Positions 27,140 through 36,282 of a DNA stretch of 64,000 nucleotides are shown one piece after another. Position numbers and translations under genes: made by a program. The number at the start of each line of letters is the position of its first letter. Position 1 is the first letter of the stretch. Under the pieces are notes generated by a model. It was not told the DNA's origin and ran no database searches. It was given only the letters and a program-made list of their open reading frames with translations. The stretch spans positions 800,001 to 864,000 of the forward strand of contig CAVPPB010000001.1 in assembly GCA_963707215.1 (NCBI GenBank), in the 5' to 3' direction. Source of the stretch: an uncultured Chloroflexia bacterium (lineage in GTDB: Bacteria > Chloroflexota > Limnocylindria > Limnocylindrales > CSP1-4).

Positions 27140-27264
27140 GGCCTCGCGGCGACGGGTGAGCGGCCTGCTCGTGCGGGCATTCGCCCCACCCCGGTATCCC
27201 GTGGATCGCCCCGTGACCACTGGTCCGAGGCGGCGCCAGACTGGGAGGGAACGGAGGTACCGAG

Positions 27265-27516
27265 ATGTCAAGGAACGTGACGATCGACATCGAGTCGATC
27301 GAGGGCGCCATCCGCCGCTACCGTCTGTCGTGCGTCCACGGCGCATCGGCCGCTGCGACGCTCCTGAGCGGCCCGGCAGCCTCGGACGACGTGGTCGTCG
27401 ACATCCTGTTCGCCCGGCATCGAACGGCCCACGATTGTACCTGCGCCTGGCCGGTCGCCGCCGCGAACGGCACGTTCGCCGGGGCCACCCCGGCCCCCCA
27501 CGAGATGTCGGCATGA
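27265..27516 (+). CDS. Small Cys/His protein
   Basis: GGAGG RBS, CVHG...H..HDCTC, and an ATGA overlap with the next gene. Confidence 0.6.
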   Translation: MSRNVTIDIESIEGAIRRYRLSCVHGASAAATLLSGPAASDDVVVDILFARHRTAHDCTCAWPVAAANGTFAGATPAPHEMSA

Positions 27517-28112
27517 CCATCTTCGGCCCACCCCATGCCCCGCTGGGACGGATCGCGACCCTCGGAGCCGCGGTGATGCTCATCGCGTCCGCGTGCTCGA
27601 CCGCCACCGGGCCCGATGCGTCGCCGTCGGCTGCCGGTCAGGCTCCGAGCCCGACGCCGACCGCCACGCCCGCTCCGACGCCCACACCGGCTCCCACCCC
27701 CACGCCGACGCCGACGCCGACCCCGGAGCCGACCATCCGCCCGGGGACGGCCGAGGCCCCGCGGGCGATCCTCGTCAACATGACCGACGAGCTCCGCTAC
27801 GACCCGGCCGTGATCGAGGTCCAAGCCGGCGAGACGATCCAGTTCGTCGTCCAGAACCCGACCAAGGTCGACCACGACTTCACCGTCGGGGACGAGATGG
27901 CCCAGATGCACCACGAAGAGGAGATGGCCCACTTCTTCGAGGAAGGCGGGATGATGGACGGGCACGACGAACCCAATGCGGTCCTCGTGCGACCCGGCGA
28001 AACGAAGATGCTCGTCATGACCTTCGATGCGCCCGGCGAGCTTCTCATCGGCTGCCACATCCCGGGCCACTACGACGCGGGCATGAAGGGAGCGATCACG
28101 GTCACCGGCTGA
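27513..28112 (+). CDS. Cupredoxin (plastocyanin/azurin family) lipoprotein with Pro-Thr linker
   Basis: Lipobox-like ASAC, (PT)n linker, HDF, type-1 Cu motif CHIPGHYDAGM, His/Met-rich insert. Confidence 0.9.
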   Translation: MTIFGPPHAPLGRIATLGAAVMLIASACSTATGPDASPSAAGQAPSPTPTATPAPTPTPAPTPTPTPTPTPEPTIRPGTAEAPRAILVNMTDELRYDPAVIEVQAGETIQFVVQNPTKVDHDFTVGDEMAQMHHEEEMAHFFEEGGMMDGHDEPNAVLVRPGETKMLVMTFDAPGELLIGCHIPGHYDAGMKGAITVTG

Positions 28113-28295: not shown

Positions 28296-29438
28296 ATGGC
28301 CGATCTCTCGACCACCTTCACCGGGCTCCGCTTCACGAACCCGTTCATGCTCGCCTCGGCCCCACCGACCGAGTCGGAGAGCAACATCATGCGGGCCTAC
28401 GAGGCAGGGTGGGGTGGCGTCGTCACCAAGACGATCGGCCTCCACCCGGTGCACAACGTCCGCGGCCCCAAGACGAAGTTCCTGCGGGTCGACGACGGCG
28501 GCAACCGCCTCTCGATGGCCAAGCGCCCGGATTCGACGCTCGTCGCGTCGTGGAACTGGGAGCTCATCTCCGACAAGCCGCTCGACTGGTGGCTTCCGCG
28601 CCTGGCCCGGATCAAGGAGGCCTGGCCGGACCGGATCCTGGTCGCCTCGATCATGGCCGGCTCGGGCAACGACAAGGAGCTCAACGCCTGGCAGACGCTC
28701 GCTGATGGCGTCCAGGATGCCGGGGTCGACGCCATCGAGCTCAACTTCTCGTGCCCCCACATGGACCGCGTCGACATGGGTTCGAACGTGGGCAAGGATC
28801 CGGTCCTCTGCTCGGTCTCGACGCAGGCGGTGAAGGCGGCCGCCAGGGTCCCGGTGTGGGTCAAGCTCACCCCGGCCGGCGCCGACATCGTCGAGGAGGC
28901 GGCCGCGACCTTCCGGGGTGGTGCCGACGCGATCTCGTCGTCGAACACCTGGCCGTCCCTGCCGCCGGTCGATCCCCAGACGCTCGACTTCGAGGTCAAC
29001 GTCGACGGCTACGTCTCGCCCGGCGGCCTTGGTGGTCCGGCGATCCTCCCGCTGTCATTGGCCAAGATGGCCCAGATGACCCAGGCCTTCCCGGACCGCG
29101 AGTTCTCCGGCATCGGCGGGATCTCGACCTTCGATCACGCCCTGGCCTACTTCCTGCTCGGCTGCGGGACGGTCCAGGTCGCCACGGCGGCGATGCTCGA
29201 TCACGCGATCGGGCCCAACGTGATCCGCGACCTCACGACGGGGATGACCGAGTTCCTCGAGCGGCATGCCGACGACGGCTGGAACTCGCTTGCCGATTTC
29301 CGCGGCCTGCGACGCGGCCGGATCGTGCCCCATGCGGACATCGCCCGGCCCGACTCGGCCGACTACCGCGGCGGCTACGAGGAGGAGGCCGAGGGCTACG
29401 CCAGCCCGACCGACGAGCCCGAGCCGATCGGGCGGTAG
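28296..29438 (+). CDS. preA: Dihydropyrimidine dehydrogenase subunit PreA-like, without a C-terminal ferredoxin domain
   Basis: NPFMLASAPP, GWGGVVTKT, NWELISD, ELNFSCPH, WVKLTP, SGIGGI. Confidence 0.85.
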   Translation: MADLSTTFTGLRFTNPFMLASAPPTESESNIMRAYEAGWGGVVTKTIGLHPVHNVRGPKTKFLRVDDGGNRLSMAKRPDSTLVASWNWELISDKPLDWWLPRLARIKEAWPDRILVASIMAGSGNDKELNAWQTLADGVQDAGVDAIELNFSCPHMDRVDMGSNVGKDPVLCSVSTQAVKAAARVPVWVKLTPAGADIVEEAAATFRGGADAISSSNTWPSLPPVDPQTLDFEVNVDGYVSPGGLGGPAILPLSLAKMAQMTQAFPDREFSGIGGISTFDHALAYFLLGCGTVQVATAAMLDHAIGPNVIRDLTTGMTEFLERHADDGWNSLADFRGLRRGRIVPHADIARPDSADYRGGYEEEAEGYASPTDEPEPIGR

Positions 29439-29924: not shown

Positions 29925-30641
29925 CTAGCCGCCCTCTCCCGGGGAGGCCGACGGAGCCGCGCTCGGCGGATGCTGGGCGACCTCGATGTCGTGGCAGAGC
30001 ACGCAGGTCGAGTCCGGCCGCAGGGCATGGTCGATGGGCAGGCCGCCCATCTGTGACGACTGGTGGCAGGACCGGCAGTCCGTCGTGATGCTGTGGACGT
30101 GCGGTACTTCGGGCGGCGGGTAGGCCGTCGGCTTGTGGCAGAGCCAGCACTCGTTCTCGTTCCGGCTGACCATGCTCGTCGGCAGGTGGGCGTAGCTGCC
30201 GTGGCAGTCGAGGCAGAGCTGGTCCTGGAGCTCCGAGTGGGGCTGGGTGATGGCCGGTCCCTCGACGGCGACCTGGTGGCAGTTGAGGCACTCGTCCTCG
30301 GGGATGCCATCGTGGCCGGGTGCCGTTCGACCGAGGTCGGCCTCCACGTGACATGCGCCGCAGGCCCGCCAGCCCTCGATCGGATGGCCGAGGGCCGGGA
30401 TGGGCTTCAGACCGCCCTCGCCGCCCGAGTCGTGGCAGAGAAGACAGCTGTTGGTCGTGGGGATGTGGGCCAGGCCCATCGGGATCGTGTCGGACGAGGC
30501 CGAGGGCGTTGGCTCGAGCTGGGCCGGCACCCCGGGCGTCGAGCCGAACGAGCTGATCACCACGATGGCCAGCAGCGCCACGACGACGACGATGTTGGCG
30601 GCCAGGAGCAGCCGGATCCCGCGGTCGACGGTGGCCCTCAT
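29925..30641 (-). CDS. Membrane-anchored heptahaem c-type cytochrome
   Basis: N-terminal TM and seven CxxCH motifs (CLLCH, CGACH, CLNCH, CLDCH, CWLCH, CRSCH, CVLCH). Confidence 0.9.
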   Translation of the reverse strand: MRATVDRGIRLLLAANIVVVVALLAIVVISSFGSTPGVPAQLEPTPSASSDTIPMGLAHIPTTNSCLLCHDSGGEGGLKPIPALGHPIEGWRACGACHVEADLGRTAPGHDGIPEDECLNCHQVAVEGPAITQPHSELQDQLCLDCHGSYAHLPTSMVSRNENECWLCHKPTAYPPPEVPHVHSITTDCRSCHQSSQMGGLPIDHALRPDSTCVLCHDIEVAQHPPSAAPSASPGEGG

Positions 30642-31456
30642 GACGTCCGTCCCTCCGCGTGCCCGTCGTCCGGTCCGACCTCCAGGTCCGCGACGTCGGG
30701 GCCGCCGTCACGAGCGTCGGCGATCTCGTCGCGGTCCACGTACTTGTAGCCGCTGAAGATGCTCGACATGAGGCCGTTGCGCTCGATGTGGTCGATGAGC
30801 ACGCAGCTGTAGACGTGGAACAGGGCGATGGCGAGGATGGCCCACATGGCGGCGTGGTGGATGAAGCGGATCAGTTGCGCCCCCAGCAGCTCCCGCAGCC
30901 ACCAGAAGCCGGAGGCCCCTGGTTCGGCCCCGATCAGGCCGTCCAGGGCGAAGCCGGTCACCGTCTCGACGAGGAGCAGGACCCAGAGCAGCACGTAGGC
31001 CGAGGCCGCCAGCTGGTTGTGCCCCAGGACCTTGGGATGGCGGGCGGTCAGGAACGCGTAGAAGGCGGCCTGGCGGAACAGCTCGGTGAACTGGGTCCAC
31101 GATGTCGGGATGAAGGCCGACCAGCGGGCGAACCGGTTGCCGGCGATGAGCCCCCAGATCCGGAGGACCCCGGACAGCAGGAGGGTGAACGCGGCGATCA
31201 TGTGGATCAGCCGGATGGTCCCCATGACCGAGCCGCCGGGCGGGATCAGGAAGGGATCGGCGATGTAGCCGCCGGTCAGGCTGAGCACGACGATGCAGCC
31301 GGCCGTGATCCAGTGGCTCGCCCGGACCGGGATCTCCCAGACGTACAGCCGGAGCCGGCCGAGCGGCAGATCGGAGGCGACCCGGGCGGACGCCTCGGCT
31401 GCGGGGTCGGCGCCCGACGCGCGCTGACCGTCGAGGGGCTCGGTGATGGCGGTCAT
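30638..31456 (-). CDS. Ni/Fe-hydrogenase b-type cytochrome subunit
   Basis: YVWEIPVRASHW, IRLIH, GHNQLA, IRFIHH..MW, FHVY, SSIFSGYK. Confidence 0.93.
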   Translation of the reverse strand: MTAITEPLDGQRASGADPAAEASARVASDLPLGRLRLYVWEIPVRASHWITAGCIVVLSLTGGYIADPFLIPPGGSVMGTIRLIHMIAAFTLLLSGVLRIWGLIAGNRFARWSAFIPTSWTQFTELFRQAAFYAFLTARHPKVLGHNQLAASAYVLLWVLLLVETVTGFALDGLIGAEPGASGFWWLRELLGAQLIRFIHHAAMWAILAIALFHVYSCVLIDHIERNGLMSSIFSGYKYVDRDEIADARDGGPDVADLEVGPDDGHAEGRTS

Positions 31457-33229
31457 CGGGCGCCTCCGTTCCTGATCCGGATCTCGATGGGAGAGGGAAC
31501 ATCGGGGCCGGCCAGGTGGGTCGCACAGGCCGTGCAGGGGGCGAAGGAGTGGACGGTCCGGAGGACCTCGAGCGGCCGGGCGAGGTCGGCGACCGGCGTT
31601 CCCACGAGCGCCTCCTCGAGCGGGCCTCGCCAGCCATGGGCATCGCGGGGCGAGGCGTTCCAGGTGGTCGCGTCGACGACCTGGTAGTCCACGATCTTCT
31701 GGTCGCGCACGCTGACCCAGTGCCCGACGGTCCCACGGGGTGCTTCTCCGAGCGACCAGCCCTGAGCCTCGGATCGGCCAGATCCCGGGATCCCAGGCCG
31801 TGATGTCGGCGACGGCGAGGTCGCCGCCGGCCAGGCGATCGCGGAGCTCGCTCAGCCAGTCAGGCAGTCGGTCCACGACGACCTGGGCCTCGATCGCCCG
31901 GGCGGCGATCCGGCCGAGGGTGCCGGTGAGAGCGTCCGGACCGAGGCCGAGTCGCCGGACGTGATCCGCCACGGCGGCCCTGACCAGGGGGACCCCGGCG
32001 GCGTAGGCGACGAGGATCCGGGCGAGCGGCCCGACCTCCATCGGCGTCTCGGCGTAGCGGGGTGCCTTGAGCCAGCTGTAGCCGTCCGAACCCTCCAGCG
32101 AGGCGTACGGTAGCTCTGGTCCGGTGTAGTCCCGCTCCGTCTGGCCGACGGAGGGGTGGAGCAGGGCCTCGTCGCCGTCGTCGTAGCGGTACCACGAGTG
32201 AGCCACTGTCTCGCCGATCTCGGCCTGATCGACCGGGTCGGAACCTGCCCGGATCGCCGCCTGTGACGCGGCCACGAGGCAGCAACCGCGGCGATTCGCC
32301 CGTGTCGCCCTCGGGGAACTCGCCGGCGGACAGGTAGCTGCCTCCGCCGACCCCCCGACCGAGCCAGTCCTCGTGGTACCCCGCGACGGCAAGGACGTCC
32401 GGGACGTACACGCGATCGACGAACGCCTGCATCTCGCTGATGAGGGCCTTGAGTTCGGCCAGTCCGTCGGGGCTCAGGGCCATCGGCGATTCCCGCTCGG
32501 GCAGCCGGGGGTGCTCGCCGGTCAGCGGCTTGATCGGACCACCCCAGGGTGGGGCGAGCACCATGCCCCCGACGACGAAGGTCTGCGGATGCGGGTTCTT
32601 GCCGCCGAGGAGGACGAAGGCGCGACTGATCCGGCGCTGCCAGTCGAAGGCCTCGAGGTAGTGGGCCATGACCATGAGGTCCGGCCTCCGGCGGCAGCTC
32701 GTAGGCCGGGTGACCCCAGTAGCCGCCGGCGAACGGGCCGAGGCGCCCGGACGGCACGAGCCCCGCGAGCAGGTCCTGGACGCCCCCGAAGTAGGAGGCG
32801 CTCGACGACGGCCAGTCGCTGATGGACCGAGCCAGCCTGGAGGTCGCCGTCGGGATCGGCCTCAGAGCGCCTCGACGTCGACCCAGTCGAGGACGCTCTG
32901 CTGGTAGAACTGGAAGACGTGGTCGCTGGGCGAGGTGCGCCCCGGCGAGGAGGTTGCGGAGCAGCCGGGCATCCGTCGGGATCGACACGTGGAGGGCACT
33001 CTCGACGGCCCGAACGGAGGCCAGCGCGTGGGCGCCGCTGCAGGCGCCGCAGATCCGCTGGGCGAACAGCCAGGCATCGCGCGGGTCGCGGTCGCGGAGG
33101 ATCCGCTCCATGCCACGGAAGATCGTCCCGGTGCTCCAGGCATCGCCGGACGACGCCGTCGGCGACGTCGACCTCGATGCGGAGGTGGCCGCCGACCCGG
33201 GTGATGGGATCGATCGCGAGCCGGCTCAC
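31453..33229 (-). CDS. Group 1 [NiFe]-hydrogenase-like large subunit with atypical active-site motifs (several frameshifts)
   Basis: [74 protein letters not shown] plus a C-terminal extension. Confidence 0.9.
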
Positions 33230-34454
33230 CGGGTGGCTCCCTGCTCGTCGCGGTCATCCGTCGGCACCGTCGCGACGTCCATGGCGCCGGCGGCGGGAGG
33301 GTCCTCACGCCCGGCGCCCCGTCGGGCGGTGCCTCGGACTCGGTCCCGGGCTCGGGTCCCGCCTCGGCGACCGCCGTGCTCGGACCGGCGGACGCGGCGC
33401 ACGGATTCGCCATGTCCCCCGTGTCCGCCACTGCGGCGCTGGCGGACGTAGCTGGCCACGCCGTGCACGGCCGTCCCGGCCACGACCCCTCCGACGAGCA
33501 GCGCCCCGAGCTGGTCCACGGTGACCTGTGGCGAGATGAACGGCAGCGGCGCCGGGATGCGCCGATAGAACGGGCTCATCGCGTCCCAGAAGCCCGGCGA
33601 GTGGCAGCCGATGCAGCCGTGGCCCGCGCGGACCGGCCAGCTGGTGCCGCTCTGCGTACCGGATCGTCGGGCATTCGCCGAACGTCTCGGGACCCTTGCA
33701 GCCCATCTTGTAGAGGCACCAGCCCTTCTGGGCCCCCTCGTCGCCCCAGGCCAGGGCGAACTCGCCGTACTCGTAGTGAGGGCGTCGCTCGCACTGGTTG
33801 TGGATGAGCGACCCGTAGGCGAAGCAGGGGCCGTTGCATACCGTCGGTCGCCGGCCAGGCGCCGAAGGTGAGGTAGTGGACGAGCGTCGCGGTAAGGTAC
33901 TCGACGTTGATCGGGCAGCCGGGCAGGCGGATGAGGGTCCCGCCGGCGACCGCATCGGCGGCCCCGACCGCCCCGGTCGGTCCACCGCCGGCGGCCGGCG
34001 CCCCGCCGTCACAGGCGCACGAGCCGACGGCGATCGTCGCCAGGGCGCCGTCACAGACCTCCCGGGCGACGTCGCGGAAGGATCGACCGCCGATCGGTGC
34101 AGTGAGCGCGCCGTCGTCGGCGGTCGGGATCGAGCCCTCGATGACGGCGACGTAGCCGTCGGCGAACTCCTCCATCGCAGCGAGCCGGGCCTCGGTGGCG
34201 TCGAGCCCGGCGGGGGCCATGAGCGTCTCGTGGTACTCGACGGACAGCAGCTCCAGCATGAGCTGCCCGACGGTCGGGTCGGCGGCCCGCAGGAAGGCCA
34301 TCGTGTCGCCGGCGCAGTCCTGGCCACGGAGCCAGACGACGGGAAGGCGCGGCGCTGCGGACACGGCCCCGGCGATCCGCGGGGTATACGTGGCCGGGAG
34401 CGCAAGGACGGCCGCCATCGCCGCGGAGAACCGAAGGAACGAGCGTCGGGTCAT
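33226..34454 (-). CDS. [NiFe]-hydrogenase small subunit, Tat-exported, C-terminal TM (frameshifted; start may be GTG 34518)
   Basis: [51 protein letters not shown]. Confidence 0.92.
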
Positions 34455-34812: not shown

Positions 34813-35160
34813 CTAGGCGGTCGAACGGTTCGTCAGCGTGGCTGCCGGTGCCGATCCCAGGGCCCCGGCCGGGCGTCCTGCCGCCGGCTCGATCTCGCTG
34901 GCCAGCTGGCGGAAGCGCTCCACGGCCTCGGGGCGGATCGAGTACCAGATCCAGTTACCGCGGCGCTCCGGCGTGACCCAGCCGGTCTCGCGGAGCACCT
35001 TGAGGTGGTGCGAGATGGTCGGCTGGCTCACCTCGCAGCAGGCCGTGAAGTCGCACGCGCAGACCGGTCCCTCGATCGAAAGCTGGCGCAGGATCGCCAG
35101 GCGGGTCGGATCGGCTGCGCCCTGGAACAGGCGAACGTCGGGATCGGTCGCTCGCTTCAT
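34813..35160 (-). CDS. arsR: ArsR/SmtB regulator with arsenite-type Cys site
   Basis: DPTRLAIL, VCACDFTACC, SQPTISHHLKVL. Divergent from arsM. Confidence 0.88.
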   Translation of the reverse strand: MKRATDPDVRLFQGAADPTRLAILRQLSIEGPVCACDFTACCEVSQPTISHHLKVLRETGWVTPERRGNWIWYSIRPEAVERFRQLASEIEPAAGRPAGALGSAPAATLTNRSTA

Positions 35161-35168
35161 GACCGAGG

Positions 35169-35204
35169 GTATTGACAGGCATCTATATAGTCAACTATCA
35201 ATAC
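35169..35204. promoter_or_regulatory. Divergent arsR/arsM promoter-operator
   Basis: AT-rich island with TTGACA (35172-77) and inverted repeats GTATTGA..TCAATAC and TTGAC..GTCAA. Confidence 0.65.
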
Positions 35205-35268
35205 AGTTCACGAGGAACAGCGCCGACGGTGCAGCCGAGCTCCGCGTCGTAGCCTGTAGGAGGATCCG

Positions 35269-35438
35269 ATGTCACCTATCCCGACCTCGTCCCGCACATC
35301 CAGGAGCAGCACGCTCGAGACATCGAGCGGGCCCGACTGGCACGGATCGCTTCGTGCGCCCGCGCCTGCTGCGCCGCCCCGGCCACCATCCTCGACCGGC
35401 TCGTTGGCGTCCTCCGGCCGACCCCACGCCCCTGCTGA
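35269..35438 (+). CDS. Small Cys-rich protein upstream of arsM (needs a 1-nt frame correction just after the ATG)
   Basis: AGGAGG RBS before the ATG. The shifted frame reads YPDLVPHIQEQHARDIERARLARIASCARACCAAPATILDRLVGVLRPTPRPC*, and its stop overlaps the arsM RBS. Confidence 0.55.
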
Positions 35439-35448
35439 GGAGCCCGAC

Positions 35449-36282
35449 GTGACCGACACCATCCACGAGACCGTCCGCGAGCACTATGCGCGGGCCGCGC
35501 TCCAGGTCCTCGAGACCGGCTCGAGCTGCTGCACCGACGAGACCGGCATCGGGGCCGAGCTCTACTCCGTCCTCGAGCGCGACGAGCTGCCGGAGGCCGC
35601 CGTCCTCGCGTCGCTCGGCTGCGGCAATCCGACCGCGGTCGCCGAGCTGCGTCCGGGCGAGCGGGTCCTCGACCTCGGCTCGGGAGGCGGCATCGACGTG
35701 CTGCTGTCGGCCAAGCGCGTCGGTCCGACCGGTCGAGCCTTCGGGCTCGACATGACCGACGAGATGCTGGCGCTGGCCCGGCGCAACGCAGCCGAGGCCG
35801 GGGCGACCAACGTCGAGTTCCTCAAGGGCACCATCGAGGCCATCCCCCTGCCGGCCGCGTCGATCGACGTCGTCATCAGCAACTGCGTCGTGAACCTCGC
35901 GGCCGACAAGTCGGCCGTCTTCCGCGAGATCGCCCGCGTCCTGCGGCCGGGTGGCCGGATCGGCATCAGCGACATCGTCGCCGACGACGAGCTGTCGTCG
36001 GCCGAGCGCGCCGAGCGAGGCTCCTACGCGGGCTGCATCGCCGGGGCGCTGTCGTTCGCGGAGTACGACGCGGGGTTGCGGGCTGCCGGCCTGTCCGACG
36101 TGACCATCACCGTGACCCACGGCGTGGTGCCCGGGCATGCACGGGGCGATCGTCAAGGCGACGAAGCCGACCGCTGACGACGCGAGTGGCCTTCCTGCGT
36201 CGCATGATGCCCGCCGGCCGGGCACCCGGCGACCGGGAGCACGTCGACCGGCGGCTGCTGCGGCCAGGATGGCCCCCGCTGA
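35449..36282 (+). CDS. arsM: Arsenite methyltransferase (frameshifts in the 3' part)
   Basis: SSCC, SLGCGNP, LDLGSGGG.D, ISNCVVNL, GCIAGA, and a C-terminal GGCCG in a shifted frame. Confidence 0.9.

Follow-up and report, generated by a model that had tools for sequence, protein, structure and literature searches.

Paired substitution of Glu28 and Val530 in a conserved [NiFe]-hydrogenase-like clade of uncultured Chloroflexota

We analysed a 64,000-nucleotide (nt) stretch of a contig from an uncultured Chloroflexia bacterium (the window, G+C content 72%), whose minus strand carries the gene of a variant [NiFe]-hydrogenase large subunit. Glu28, the proton gate of Escherichia coli hydrogenase 1 (Hyd-1), is replaced by glycine, and the valine at position 530 by aspartate. 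This pair of substitutions is far beyond chance, recurring in 94 of 120 relatives and in 16 of 401 genomes. The variants almost certainly form a real conserved clade, seen in one family of a Chloroflexota class (records of Candidatus Limnocylindrales). By its fold, its partners and most of its ligands, as read from the sequence, the protein belongs to the membrane-bound [NiFe]-hydrogenases of group 1. The reading that we prefer, with a probability of about 0.55, is a matured, probably slow membrane-bound [NiFe]-hydrogenase paralogue with a rewired proton exit.

Motifs and distribution of the variant clade

Motifs were placed by six-frame translation and by tblastn with P0001, the intact 590-residue orthologue from a genome of the same genus (G001), which also served as the alignment reference. 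Residue numbers are those of Hyd-1, taken from the phmmer alignment of P0001 to the Hyd-1 chains. The same numbering had been used in an earlier description made from the letters of the window (the original prediction), and it holds in this alignment; all motifs quoted there exist on the minus strand between positions 31453 and 33229 (Table 1). The changes in the window copy relative to Hyd-1 are E28G, V78A, H122Q, L126Q, V530D, P531A and D574A. The residues C76, C79, D118, R509, T532, C576, C579 and H582 are kept, the four metal-ligand cysteines standing in RICGAC and APCTAC. The equivalent of V78 is threonine in P0001 and alanine in the window copy.

The domain PF00374 matches all four frame pieces of the gene (E 1e-24 to 1e-38). 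The best match of P0001 among sequences of the structural database is the Allochromatium vinosum hydrogenase 3MYR_B (E 2.7e-172), and an AlphaFold 2 (AF2) model compared with 3MYR by Foldseek gives template-modelling (TM) scores of 0.87/0.91 at 48% identity. Besides the domain, the fold and the four cysteine ligands, the family features present are a small subunit with a twin-arginine translocation (TAT) signal and three Fe-S sites, and a cytochrome b. The PF00374 scores of the variants (525-650 bits) are below those of the canonical paralogues (752-767 bits). NCBIfam equivalog cut-offs are not reached (504 vs 1101; 441 vs 600), and the canonical paralogue also falls below them. The glutamate of the RxEGH motif is glycine in the window; this residue is not defining for the whole family, as the group 1h enzyme 5AA5 also lacks it. 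Of the residues that hold the pendant arginine R509, the window copy keeps D118 but has alanine for D574.

The window enzyme shares with A. vinosum Hyn (3MYR) and E. coli Hyd-1 (3UQY) the fold, the four cysteines, the pendant arginine, Asp118, the cyanide-binding threonine, the C-terminal histidine with its tail, the exported small subunit with three cluster sites and the cytochrome b. It differs from both in Gly28, Asp530, Ala531, Ala574, the replaced gas-gate residues Val78 and Leu126, a His-rich helix reduced to a single histidine, a 17-residue insertion, CAGD in place of CxGC in the small subunit, and the seven-haem cytochrome c in the operon.

When the G001 orthologue was compared with 5.8 billion proteins, 8000 candidates were scored, and the best 120 were read for motifs by eye. 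Of these, 94 are variants of about 590 residues and 26 are canonical proteins of about 569 residues with Glu28 and Val530. Asp530 is present in all 94 variants and in none of the 26 canonical relatives. Position 28 of the variants is occupied by Gly (89), Asn (2), Asp (1) or Ser (1), with one sequence unread, and by Glu in none. No mixed forms of the pair were observed among these 120 relatives or among 11 more distant cluster representatives. The two closest of the latter (52-54% identity) are also of the variant type, and one has no residues after the terminal histidine. Intact genes with the same unusual motifs occur in three genomes (G001, G007 and G002). An alignment of 29 clade members has 73% mean identity per column and about 170 invariant columns. 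C76, C576, C579, H582 and Asp530 are invariant across this alignment and the sequences compared, and the clade conserves the Asp118-His119 dyad and usually also the cleavable tail.

Every variant contains the insertion PPWGGPxxxLPGEHPxL (alignment columns about 227-243), with invariant WGGP and HP; it was not seen in any canonical sequence compared. It follows the conserved histidine of NPHPQ by a few residues; in other enzymes this histidine faces the proximal cluster.

At the genome level, the motif pattern was found in 16 of the 401 genomes of the class, all of them in the family of the window (f1), and the reversed-pattern control gave zero. Apart from the genome of the window, 15 of 137 genomes of f1 contain it, over five further genera, and none of 263 genomes from four other families of the class does. 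The pattern misses members with VDG, VDP or unusual codons, and thus all these counts, 16 of 401 included, are lower bounds. A scan of species-representative genomes, in which the best 80 of at least 600 stretches were kept, returned mostly canonical enzymes of other phyla and is no census. Among these 80, only two further records bear the motifs, both labelled Chloroflexota/Chloroflexi, and the matches from Acidobacteriota, Desulfuromonadales, Anaerolineae and other groups are canonical. The motifs and the identities together point to a single origin of the variant clade. The open-access literature that was searched holds no description of a group-1 clade with Asp530 and without Glu28, or of an operon with the seven-haem cytochrome, although supplementary tables of surveys may list such sequences under a subgroup name.

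The original prediction had proposed looking for homologues sharing RVGGH, VDAT and APCxxC. It is E28G together with V530D that defines the clade, whereas the change of DPC to APC, CG(A/T)C and the Q-rich helix, the last two being the gas-gate changes, are restricted to the subclade nearest to the window. Of 91 readable variants, 14 have another residue in place of D574 (Ala 9, Glu 2, Gly 1, Ser 1, Asn 1), and most of these are the closest relatives of the window copy (P0002-P0010).

The genome of the window also contains an intact canonical paralogue (G000:C1:556229-557779), and this protein and its relatives show 56-60% identity to the variant. As in the variant operon, the gene for the small subunit is followed by those for the large subunit and cytochrome b, and the second position of the proximal cluster is likewise not a cysteine (CAGN). 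However, the canonical type keeps RIEGH, CGVCTTVH, DHVIHFYHLH, EEAPRG, VVPSTWN and DPC(M/L)AC, which reads DPCMAC in this genome, and has no insertion. Unlike the variant, it has a protease and hyp genes alongside and no multihaem cytochrome downstream. This paralogue and the relatives from Acidobacteriota, Desulfuromonadales and Anaerolineae presumably resemble HydDB groups 1e/1f. A third, shorter hydrogenase-like large subunit lies in the same genome within a 448-residue frame (G000:C1:573394-574536).

Operon organisation, partners and maturation

The genes in the window follow the order ArsR, small subunit, large subunit, cytochrome b, seven-haem cytochrome c (Table 1). Seven evenly spaced CxxCH motifs, at identical intervals, were found downstream of the variant large subunit in all 10 further loci compared from other genomes, and also in G007 and in one Chloroflexi record. 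Downstream of five canonical operons the CxxCH counts are 0, 1, 0, 0 and 0. The cytochrome may serve as an extracytoplasmic electron outlet or inlet besides quinone.

The small subunit of the window has the proximal-cluster motifs CAGD (not CxGC) and GSCACDGG, and its medial and distal cluster ligands are canonical. This suggests a proximal cluster of three cysteines and one Asp/Asn, as predicted ligands go, similar to group 1h but in a TAT-exported enzyme. Neither the variant nor the canonical paralogue has the second cysteine of CxGC in its small subunit, the motif reading CAGD, CAGN or CGGN. These small subunits also have aspartate where other enzymes have tryptophan (GSCA[CF]DGG), and the subclade of the window adds a cysteine there (GSCACDGG).

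A maturation endopeptidase of the HyaD/HybD family (HycI/HybD) is encoded between the cytochrome b and cytochrome c genes in G007, G191, G206, G311 and G095. In four of five genomes checked, as well as in G007, at most about 1 kb separates the variant large subunit from this protease downstream of it. Cleavage of the large-subunit tail by such endopeptidases follows, and depends on, nickel insertion. A dedicated endopeptidase retained in five operons would be pointless without nickel insertion, and it is likely that the large subunit still carries the NiFe cofactor. The window copy has the terminal histidine and a 20-residue tail. In G191 (91% complete), no full-length group-1 large subunit was found other than a variant without the pendant arginine and without the histidine of the L1 motif; this variant lies in a complete operon, and the only protease detected is the one inside that operon. 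The small subunit, cytochrome b and protease all score above NCBIfam or Pfam cut-offs. HypD is present in the genome of the window, beside the canonical operon. Some variant large subunits (P0123, P0072) stop exactly at the terminal histidine; having no cleavable tail, these members would not need the endopeptidase.

The regulator upstream of the operon has a Cys-rich site, CACDFTACC, and a gene for an ArsM-like S-adenosylmethionine (SAM) methyltransferase is divergently transcribed from it (window 34813-36177). These neighbours were not accepted as pointing to an arsenic-related function, as the synteny is seen within one genus only. Just past the cytochrome c gene, the plus strand encodes two proteins (window 27156-28112 and 28296-29438), one with a cupredoxin domain and a long linker rich in Pro, Thr and Ala, the other resembling dihydroorotate dehydrogenase.

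Table 1. Features of the variant operon in the window, with the loci used for comparison. Coordinates are those of the window unless a genome or locus handle is given.
Feature	Position	Strand	Evidence or remark
ArsR-family regulator	34813..35160	-	upstream of operon; operon membership uncertain; syntenic in same-genus locus L037
Small subunit	33226..34454	-	TAT signal; PF01058, PF14720, TIGR00391; frame-broken near 33640 and 33830
Large subunit, variant [NiFe]-hydrogenase	31453..33229	-	PF00374 on four frame pieces; tblastn with P0001; DNA alignment to G001
RVGGH (part of DPITRVGGH)	33185..33199	-	Gly at 33193..33191 in place of the Hyd-1 proton-gate Glu28
L1 motif	33028..33057	-	C76, C79, L1 His; Ala at gas-gate position V78
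His-rich-helix equivalent	32895..32924	-	D118, H119 kept; H122Q, L126Q
17-residue clade-specific insertion after GGM(V/A)L	about 32520..32570	-	alignments; position approximate
EAPRG	31732..31746	-	pendant Arg (R509 equivalent, 31737..31735) kept
CO/CN-pocket loop	31657..31686	-	Asp (31674..31672) for V530, Ala for P531; cyanide-binding T532 kept
L2 motif	31516..31545	-	C576, C579, H582 kept; Ala (31542..31540) for canopy Asp D574; then 20-residue C-terminal tail
Hydrogenase b-type cytochrome subunit, intact	30638..31456	-	PF01292; TIGR02125 126.9 vs cut-off 121.5
Membrane-anchored cytochrome c, seven CxxCH, intact	29925..30641	-	variant-operon hallmark
Small subunits compared for proximal cluster	window 33226-34454; L001:3159-4322; L137:6518-7732	-; -; 	
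Break clusters outside the window	G000:C3:9000-13000; G000:C3:1709000-1713000; G000:C1:783000-787000		frameshift hidden Markov model and gene identities

Proton exit and possible change of function

In work on the mechanism of [NiFe]-hydrogenases, three features count as near-universal: the glutamate beside the terminal cysteine, which acts as the proton gate, the pendant arginine, held to be strictly conserved, and the pair of aspartates that holds this arginine (PMC8020662, PMC10430524, PMC5962704). Glu28 is described as 'a universal proton gate' beside Cys576 (PMC8020662). R509 is held by D118 and D574, and T532 is hydrogen-bonded to the cyanide ligand (PMC5962704). The glutamate pathway leads to a Mg-bound water (PMC3325256).

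The proposed mechanism is as follows. The variant protein would still receive the NiFe(CO)(CN)2 cofactor, and H2 turnover would persist, probably at a slow rate; H2 is probably still the substrate. Without Glu28, protons would leave via the acquired Asp530 or via the retained route Arg-Asp118-His119. Electrons would travel along the three Fe-S clusters and reach quinone by way of cytochrome b, the outward-facing seven-haem cytochrome, or both of these acceptors. Loss of Glu28 goes strictly together with gain of Asp530, which suggests that a carboxylate has been relocated, and we tentatively consider Asp530 as a candidate proton relay. Position 530 is two residues before the cyanide-binding threonine, on a strand that, in Desulfovibrio structures, presumably connects the Mg site with the Fe ligands. 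The available parts of PMC8020662 make no mention of V530, P531 or T532, and those of PMC5902676 none of V500 or T502.

Enzymes with a similar change are known. In HynL of T. roseopersicina, a close relative of the best structural match, the effect of E14Q was 'less pronounced', and a proton route Arg-Asp-His-Glu is backed by mutagenesis (PMC3325256). The group 1h enzyme of Cupriavidus necator (5AA5) reads RIVGS, with valine at the site of the glutamate. This natural enzyme of the 'actinobacterial type' is active, O2-insensitive and of low turnover, and its proximal cluster has three cysteines and one aspartate (PMC11023054); H2 oxidation can thus survive the loss of Glu28. The glutamate is indeed absent from the window copy, as the original prediction stated, but the view that it is needed for H2 turnover has to be relaxed, its loss not being unprecedented. 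On the other hand, 5AA5 is distantly related to the variant: it is cytoplasmic, has no TAT signal and no cytochrome b, reads Pro-Pro-Thr at 530-532 and keeps Asp574. A more remote analogy is provided by the sensory [FeFe]-hydrogenases (HydS, groups C/D), in which the canonical proton pathway is replaced and activity is very low (PMC11023054); however, their fold and cofactor are unrelated, and the variant has no sensor or signalling domains. A group-1h-like large subunit with RVAGA at the glutamate site, whose best match in the Protein Data Bank is 5AA5, was observed in two relatives (G019, G014; loci L014, L015).

Since the window copy keeps Arg509 while its partner Asp574 and both gas-gate residues are changed, a slow enzyme would be expected, possibly a more O2-tolerant one, by analogy with groups 1h and 2a (PMC11023054). 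A hydrogenase with a different proton pathway was one of the readings offered by the original prediction. It is the one favoured here, with corrections as to the substitutions that define the clade (E28G with V530D) and as to the nature of the indels. The other reading offered there, a hydrogenase-fold oxidoreductase for a substrate larger or more polar than H2, would belong with the change of function considered below, which the residue losses in other clade members make conceivable.

Several observations weigh against a hydrogenase with a rewired proton exit. The pendant arginine is lost in 27 of the 94 variants (Gly 18, Lys 7, Gln 2), the L1 histidine in 14 (Gln 13, Tyr 1) and the bridging Cys79 in two (Ala, Ser), whereas these residues are kept in all 26 canonical relatives. 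Such losses of residues considered strictly conserved suggest that selection does not maintain efficient H2 catalysis. Furthermore, no endopeptidase is encoded at the corresponding operon position in G073, G001 or the window, and the single HycI-family protease of the window's genome, which is 84.8% complete, lies beside the canonical operon. The confidence of the AF2 model is lowest at the RAGGH loop (residues 10-15, predicted local distance difference test score, pLDDT, below 50) and at the insertion. The nearness of position 530 to Cys576 and Glu28 is presumed from known structures. Finally, the R487I substitution blocked maturation in T. roseopersicina (PMC3325256).

For the members concerned, these losses, together with the insertion and the additional cytochrome, are explained no less well by a change of function. 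The metal site would still be built in the hydrogenase fold but would no longer act mainly on H2. Its pocket, opened and made more polar by the absence of Glu28, the presence of Asp530 and, in sublineages, the absence of Arg509 or Asp574, would serve another small substrate, for instance O2 or reactive oxygen species reduced with electrons from quinol or the seven-haem cytochrome, or have a protective or sensing role. In an otherwise well-conserved clade R509, the L1 histidine and C79 are each lost in some members, as is D574 in 14 of 91. The window copy has other residues at the gas gate, the invariant insertion (WGGP...HP) lies near the subunit interface, and among the loci compared the seven-haem cytochrome is recruited to the variant operon only. 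In addition, a canonical paralogue is present beside the variant in four of five genomes checked, so that the variant copy is free to diverge, and replacement of the arginine in Hyd-2 is reported to give an enzyme with a tightly bound diatomic ligand on Ni (PMC10430524). However, the gene neighbourhood offers no candidate substrate, the operon being that of an ordinary uptake hydrogenase apart from the cytochrome. There is no canonical group-1 paralogue in G191. The window copy retains R509, D118, T532 and the four cysteines, and group 1h oxidises H2 without the glutamate (PMC11023054). We regard a new function as unlikely.

In its fullest form this alternative is a scenario, again an unlikely one, in which the lineage abandoned fast H2 catalysis and turned the NiFe pocket to different chemistry. 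Glu28 would have been exchanged for Asp530 first, and the arginine, the L1 histidine, the canopy aspartate and the bridging cysteine then discarded in sublineages, while nickel-dependent maturation was kept and the enzyme wired to the outward-facing seven-haem cytochrome. If true, hydrogenase function would have been left a second time, in addition to the exit that led to complex I.

Integrity of the window copy and implications

In the assembly, the large-subunit gene is spread over three frames. Compared with the orthologue, it has six 1-nt indels, at about 33149, 32925, 32872, 32682, 32250 and 31773 (five extra bases, one missing). When these are discounted, the gene has 590 codons, its corrected length of 1773 nt equals that of the orthologue, no in-frame stop remains, and there are no larger lesions. 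At the syntenic locus of G001, itself in a fragmented assembly, the genes for ArsR, the small subunit, the 590-residue large subunit, cytochrome b and the multihaem cytochrome c are all intact.

The genome of the window (G000) consists of five contigs with a total length of 3.26 Mb. It was scanned for frameshifts with a home-made hidden Markov model based on the periodicity of third-position G+C content (GC3), which had no calibration on clean genomes and was used for the relative pattern only. The scan gave 722 frameshift-like frame switches without a stop codon in 3.26 Mb. They are strongly clustered, as 103 of 3245 intervals of 3 kb hold at least five each. Clusters elsewhere in the genome cut the genes for NusA, IF-2, RbfA, NuoJ/K/L and a UvrD-like helicase into many frames (Table 1). 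IF-2 cannot be a pseudogene, and dense breaks of this kind in this assembly are most likely consensus errors.

Short-read contigs of related strains from four public runs were compared with the window. The runs are labelled estuary or sediment metagenomes, from which no habitat claim is drawn, and hold 5-7% of the window's words; they are not the source sample, and missing cover carries no meaning. Relative to the window, these contigs show 1-nt indels at or beside the breaks (31774, 32681, 32849/32862, 32927, 33652/3 and 33827). In run X1, near-identical contigs (1-3 differences per 151-192 nt) show a 1-nt gap across the break near 32250. A hand count over the longest in-frame stretch (alignment columns 550-980 against the G001 orthologue, 143 codons) gave 73 identical codons, 49 that differ only synonymously and 21 in which the amino acid changes, which corresponds to a ratio of non-synonymous to synonymous substitution rates (dN/dS) of roughly 0.1-0.2.

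Hence the six frame breaks are very probably artefacts of a patchily noisy assembly and not signs of decay. The random indels of the original prediction do exist in the assembly, but as biology they are most likely assembly errors, given the clustered breaks in essential genes and the related contigs that lack them. Together with the recurrence of the pair in relatives and genomes, the low dN/dS bears out the expectation of a conserved clade under purifying selection, and the refuting case named in the same prediction, substitutions unique to a decaying copy, is excluded by the 94 relatives that keep the pair.

It is nevertheless conceivable that the window copy is a recently inactivated pseudogene, the frameshifts being real here although the clade is functional elsewhere. 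The breaks are present in the large and the small subunit genes and are denser here (about 8 in 3 kb, vs a genome average of 2.2 per 10 kb), the flanking cytochrome genes are intact, and a canonical paralogue exists in the same genome. Moreover, the contig comparison covers related strains and not the source sample. However, equally dense clusters break the essential genes for IF-2 and NusA. The lesions are 1-nt indels only, with no larger deletion, and correction restores the exact length with no in-frame stop. The X1 contigs lack one base across the break near 32250, and the dN/dS of about 0.1-0.2 does not indicate relaxed selection. The lesions thus look like patchy consensus error, and a pseudogene is improbable. 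As a practical matter, dense frameshifts in this assembly are no evidence for pseudogenes, and apparent pseudogenes in it should be distrusted.

Most improbable is a catalytically dead scaffold. The large subunit would then only hold the Fe-S wire of the small subunit in place, within an electron module of the quinol:cytochrome c type that links the seven-haem cytochrome c to cytochrome b/quinone. The eroded second-sphere residues, the strictly kept medial and distal cluster ligands and both cytochromes, and the lower PF00374 scores would fit it, but C76, C576, C579, H582 and Asp530 do not vary, the cleavable tail is usually retained and five operons still have a dedicated maturation endopeptidase.

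The roles of the residues discussed here have so far been probed by engineered, crippled point mutants, and the clade provides natural, selected alternatives. Its sublineages, which differently lack the arginine, the canopy aspartate or the L1 histidine, are natural 'mutants' of residues held to be essential. If the variants are active hydrogenases with a rewired proton exit, they would show how the exit can be rerouted, and the roles of Glu28 and Arg509 could be tested by swapping the residues back. If they are no longer hydrogenases, they would be a new functional offshoot of the fold. The constant pairing with the seven-haem cytochrome also suggests that H2 metabolism has an unstudied electron outlet in this widespread lineage of uncultured Chloroflexota.

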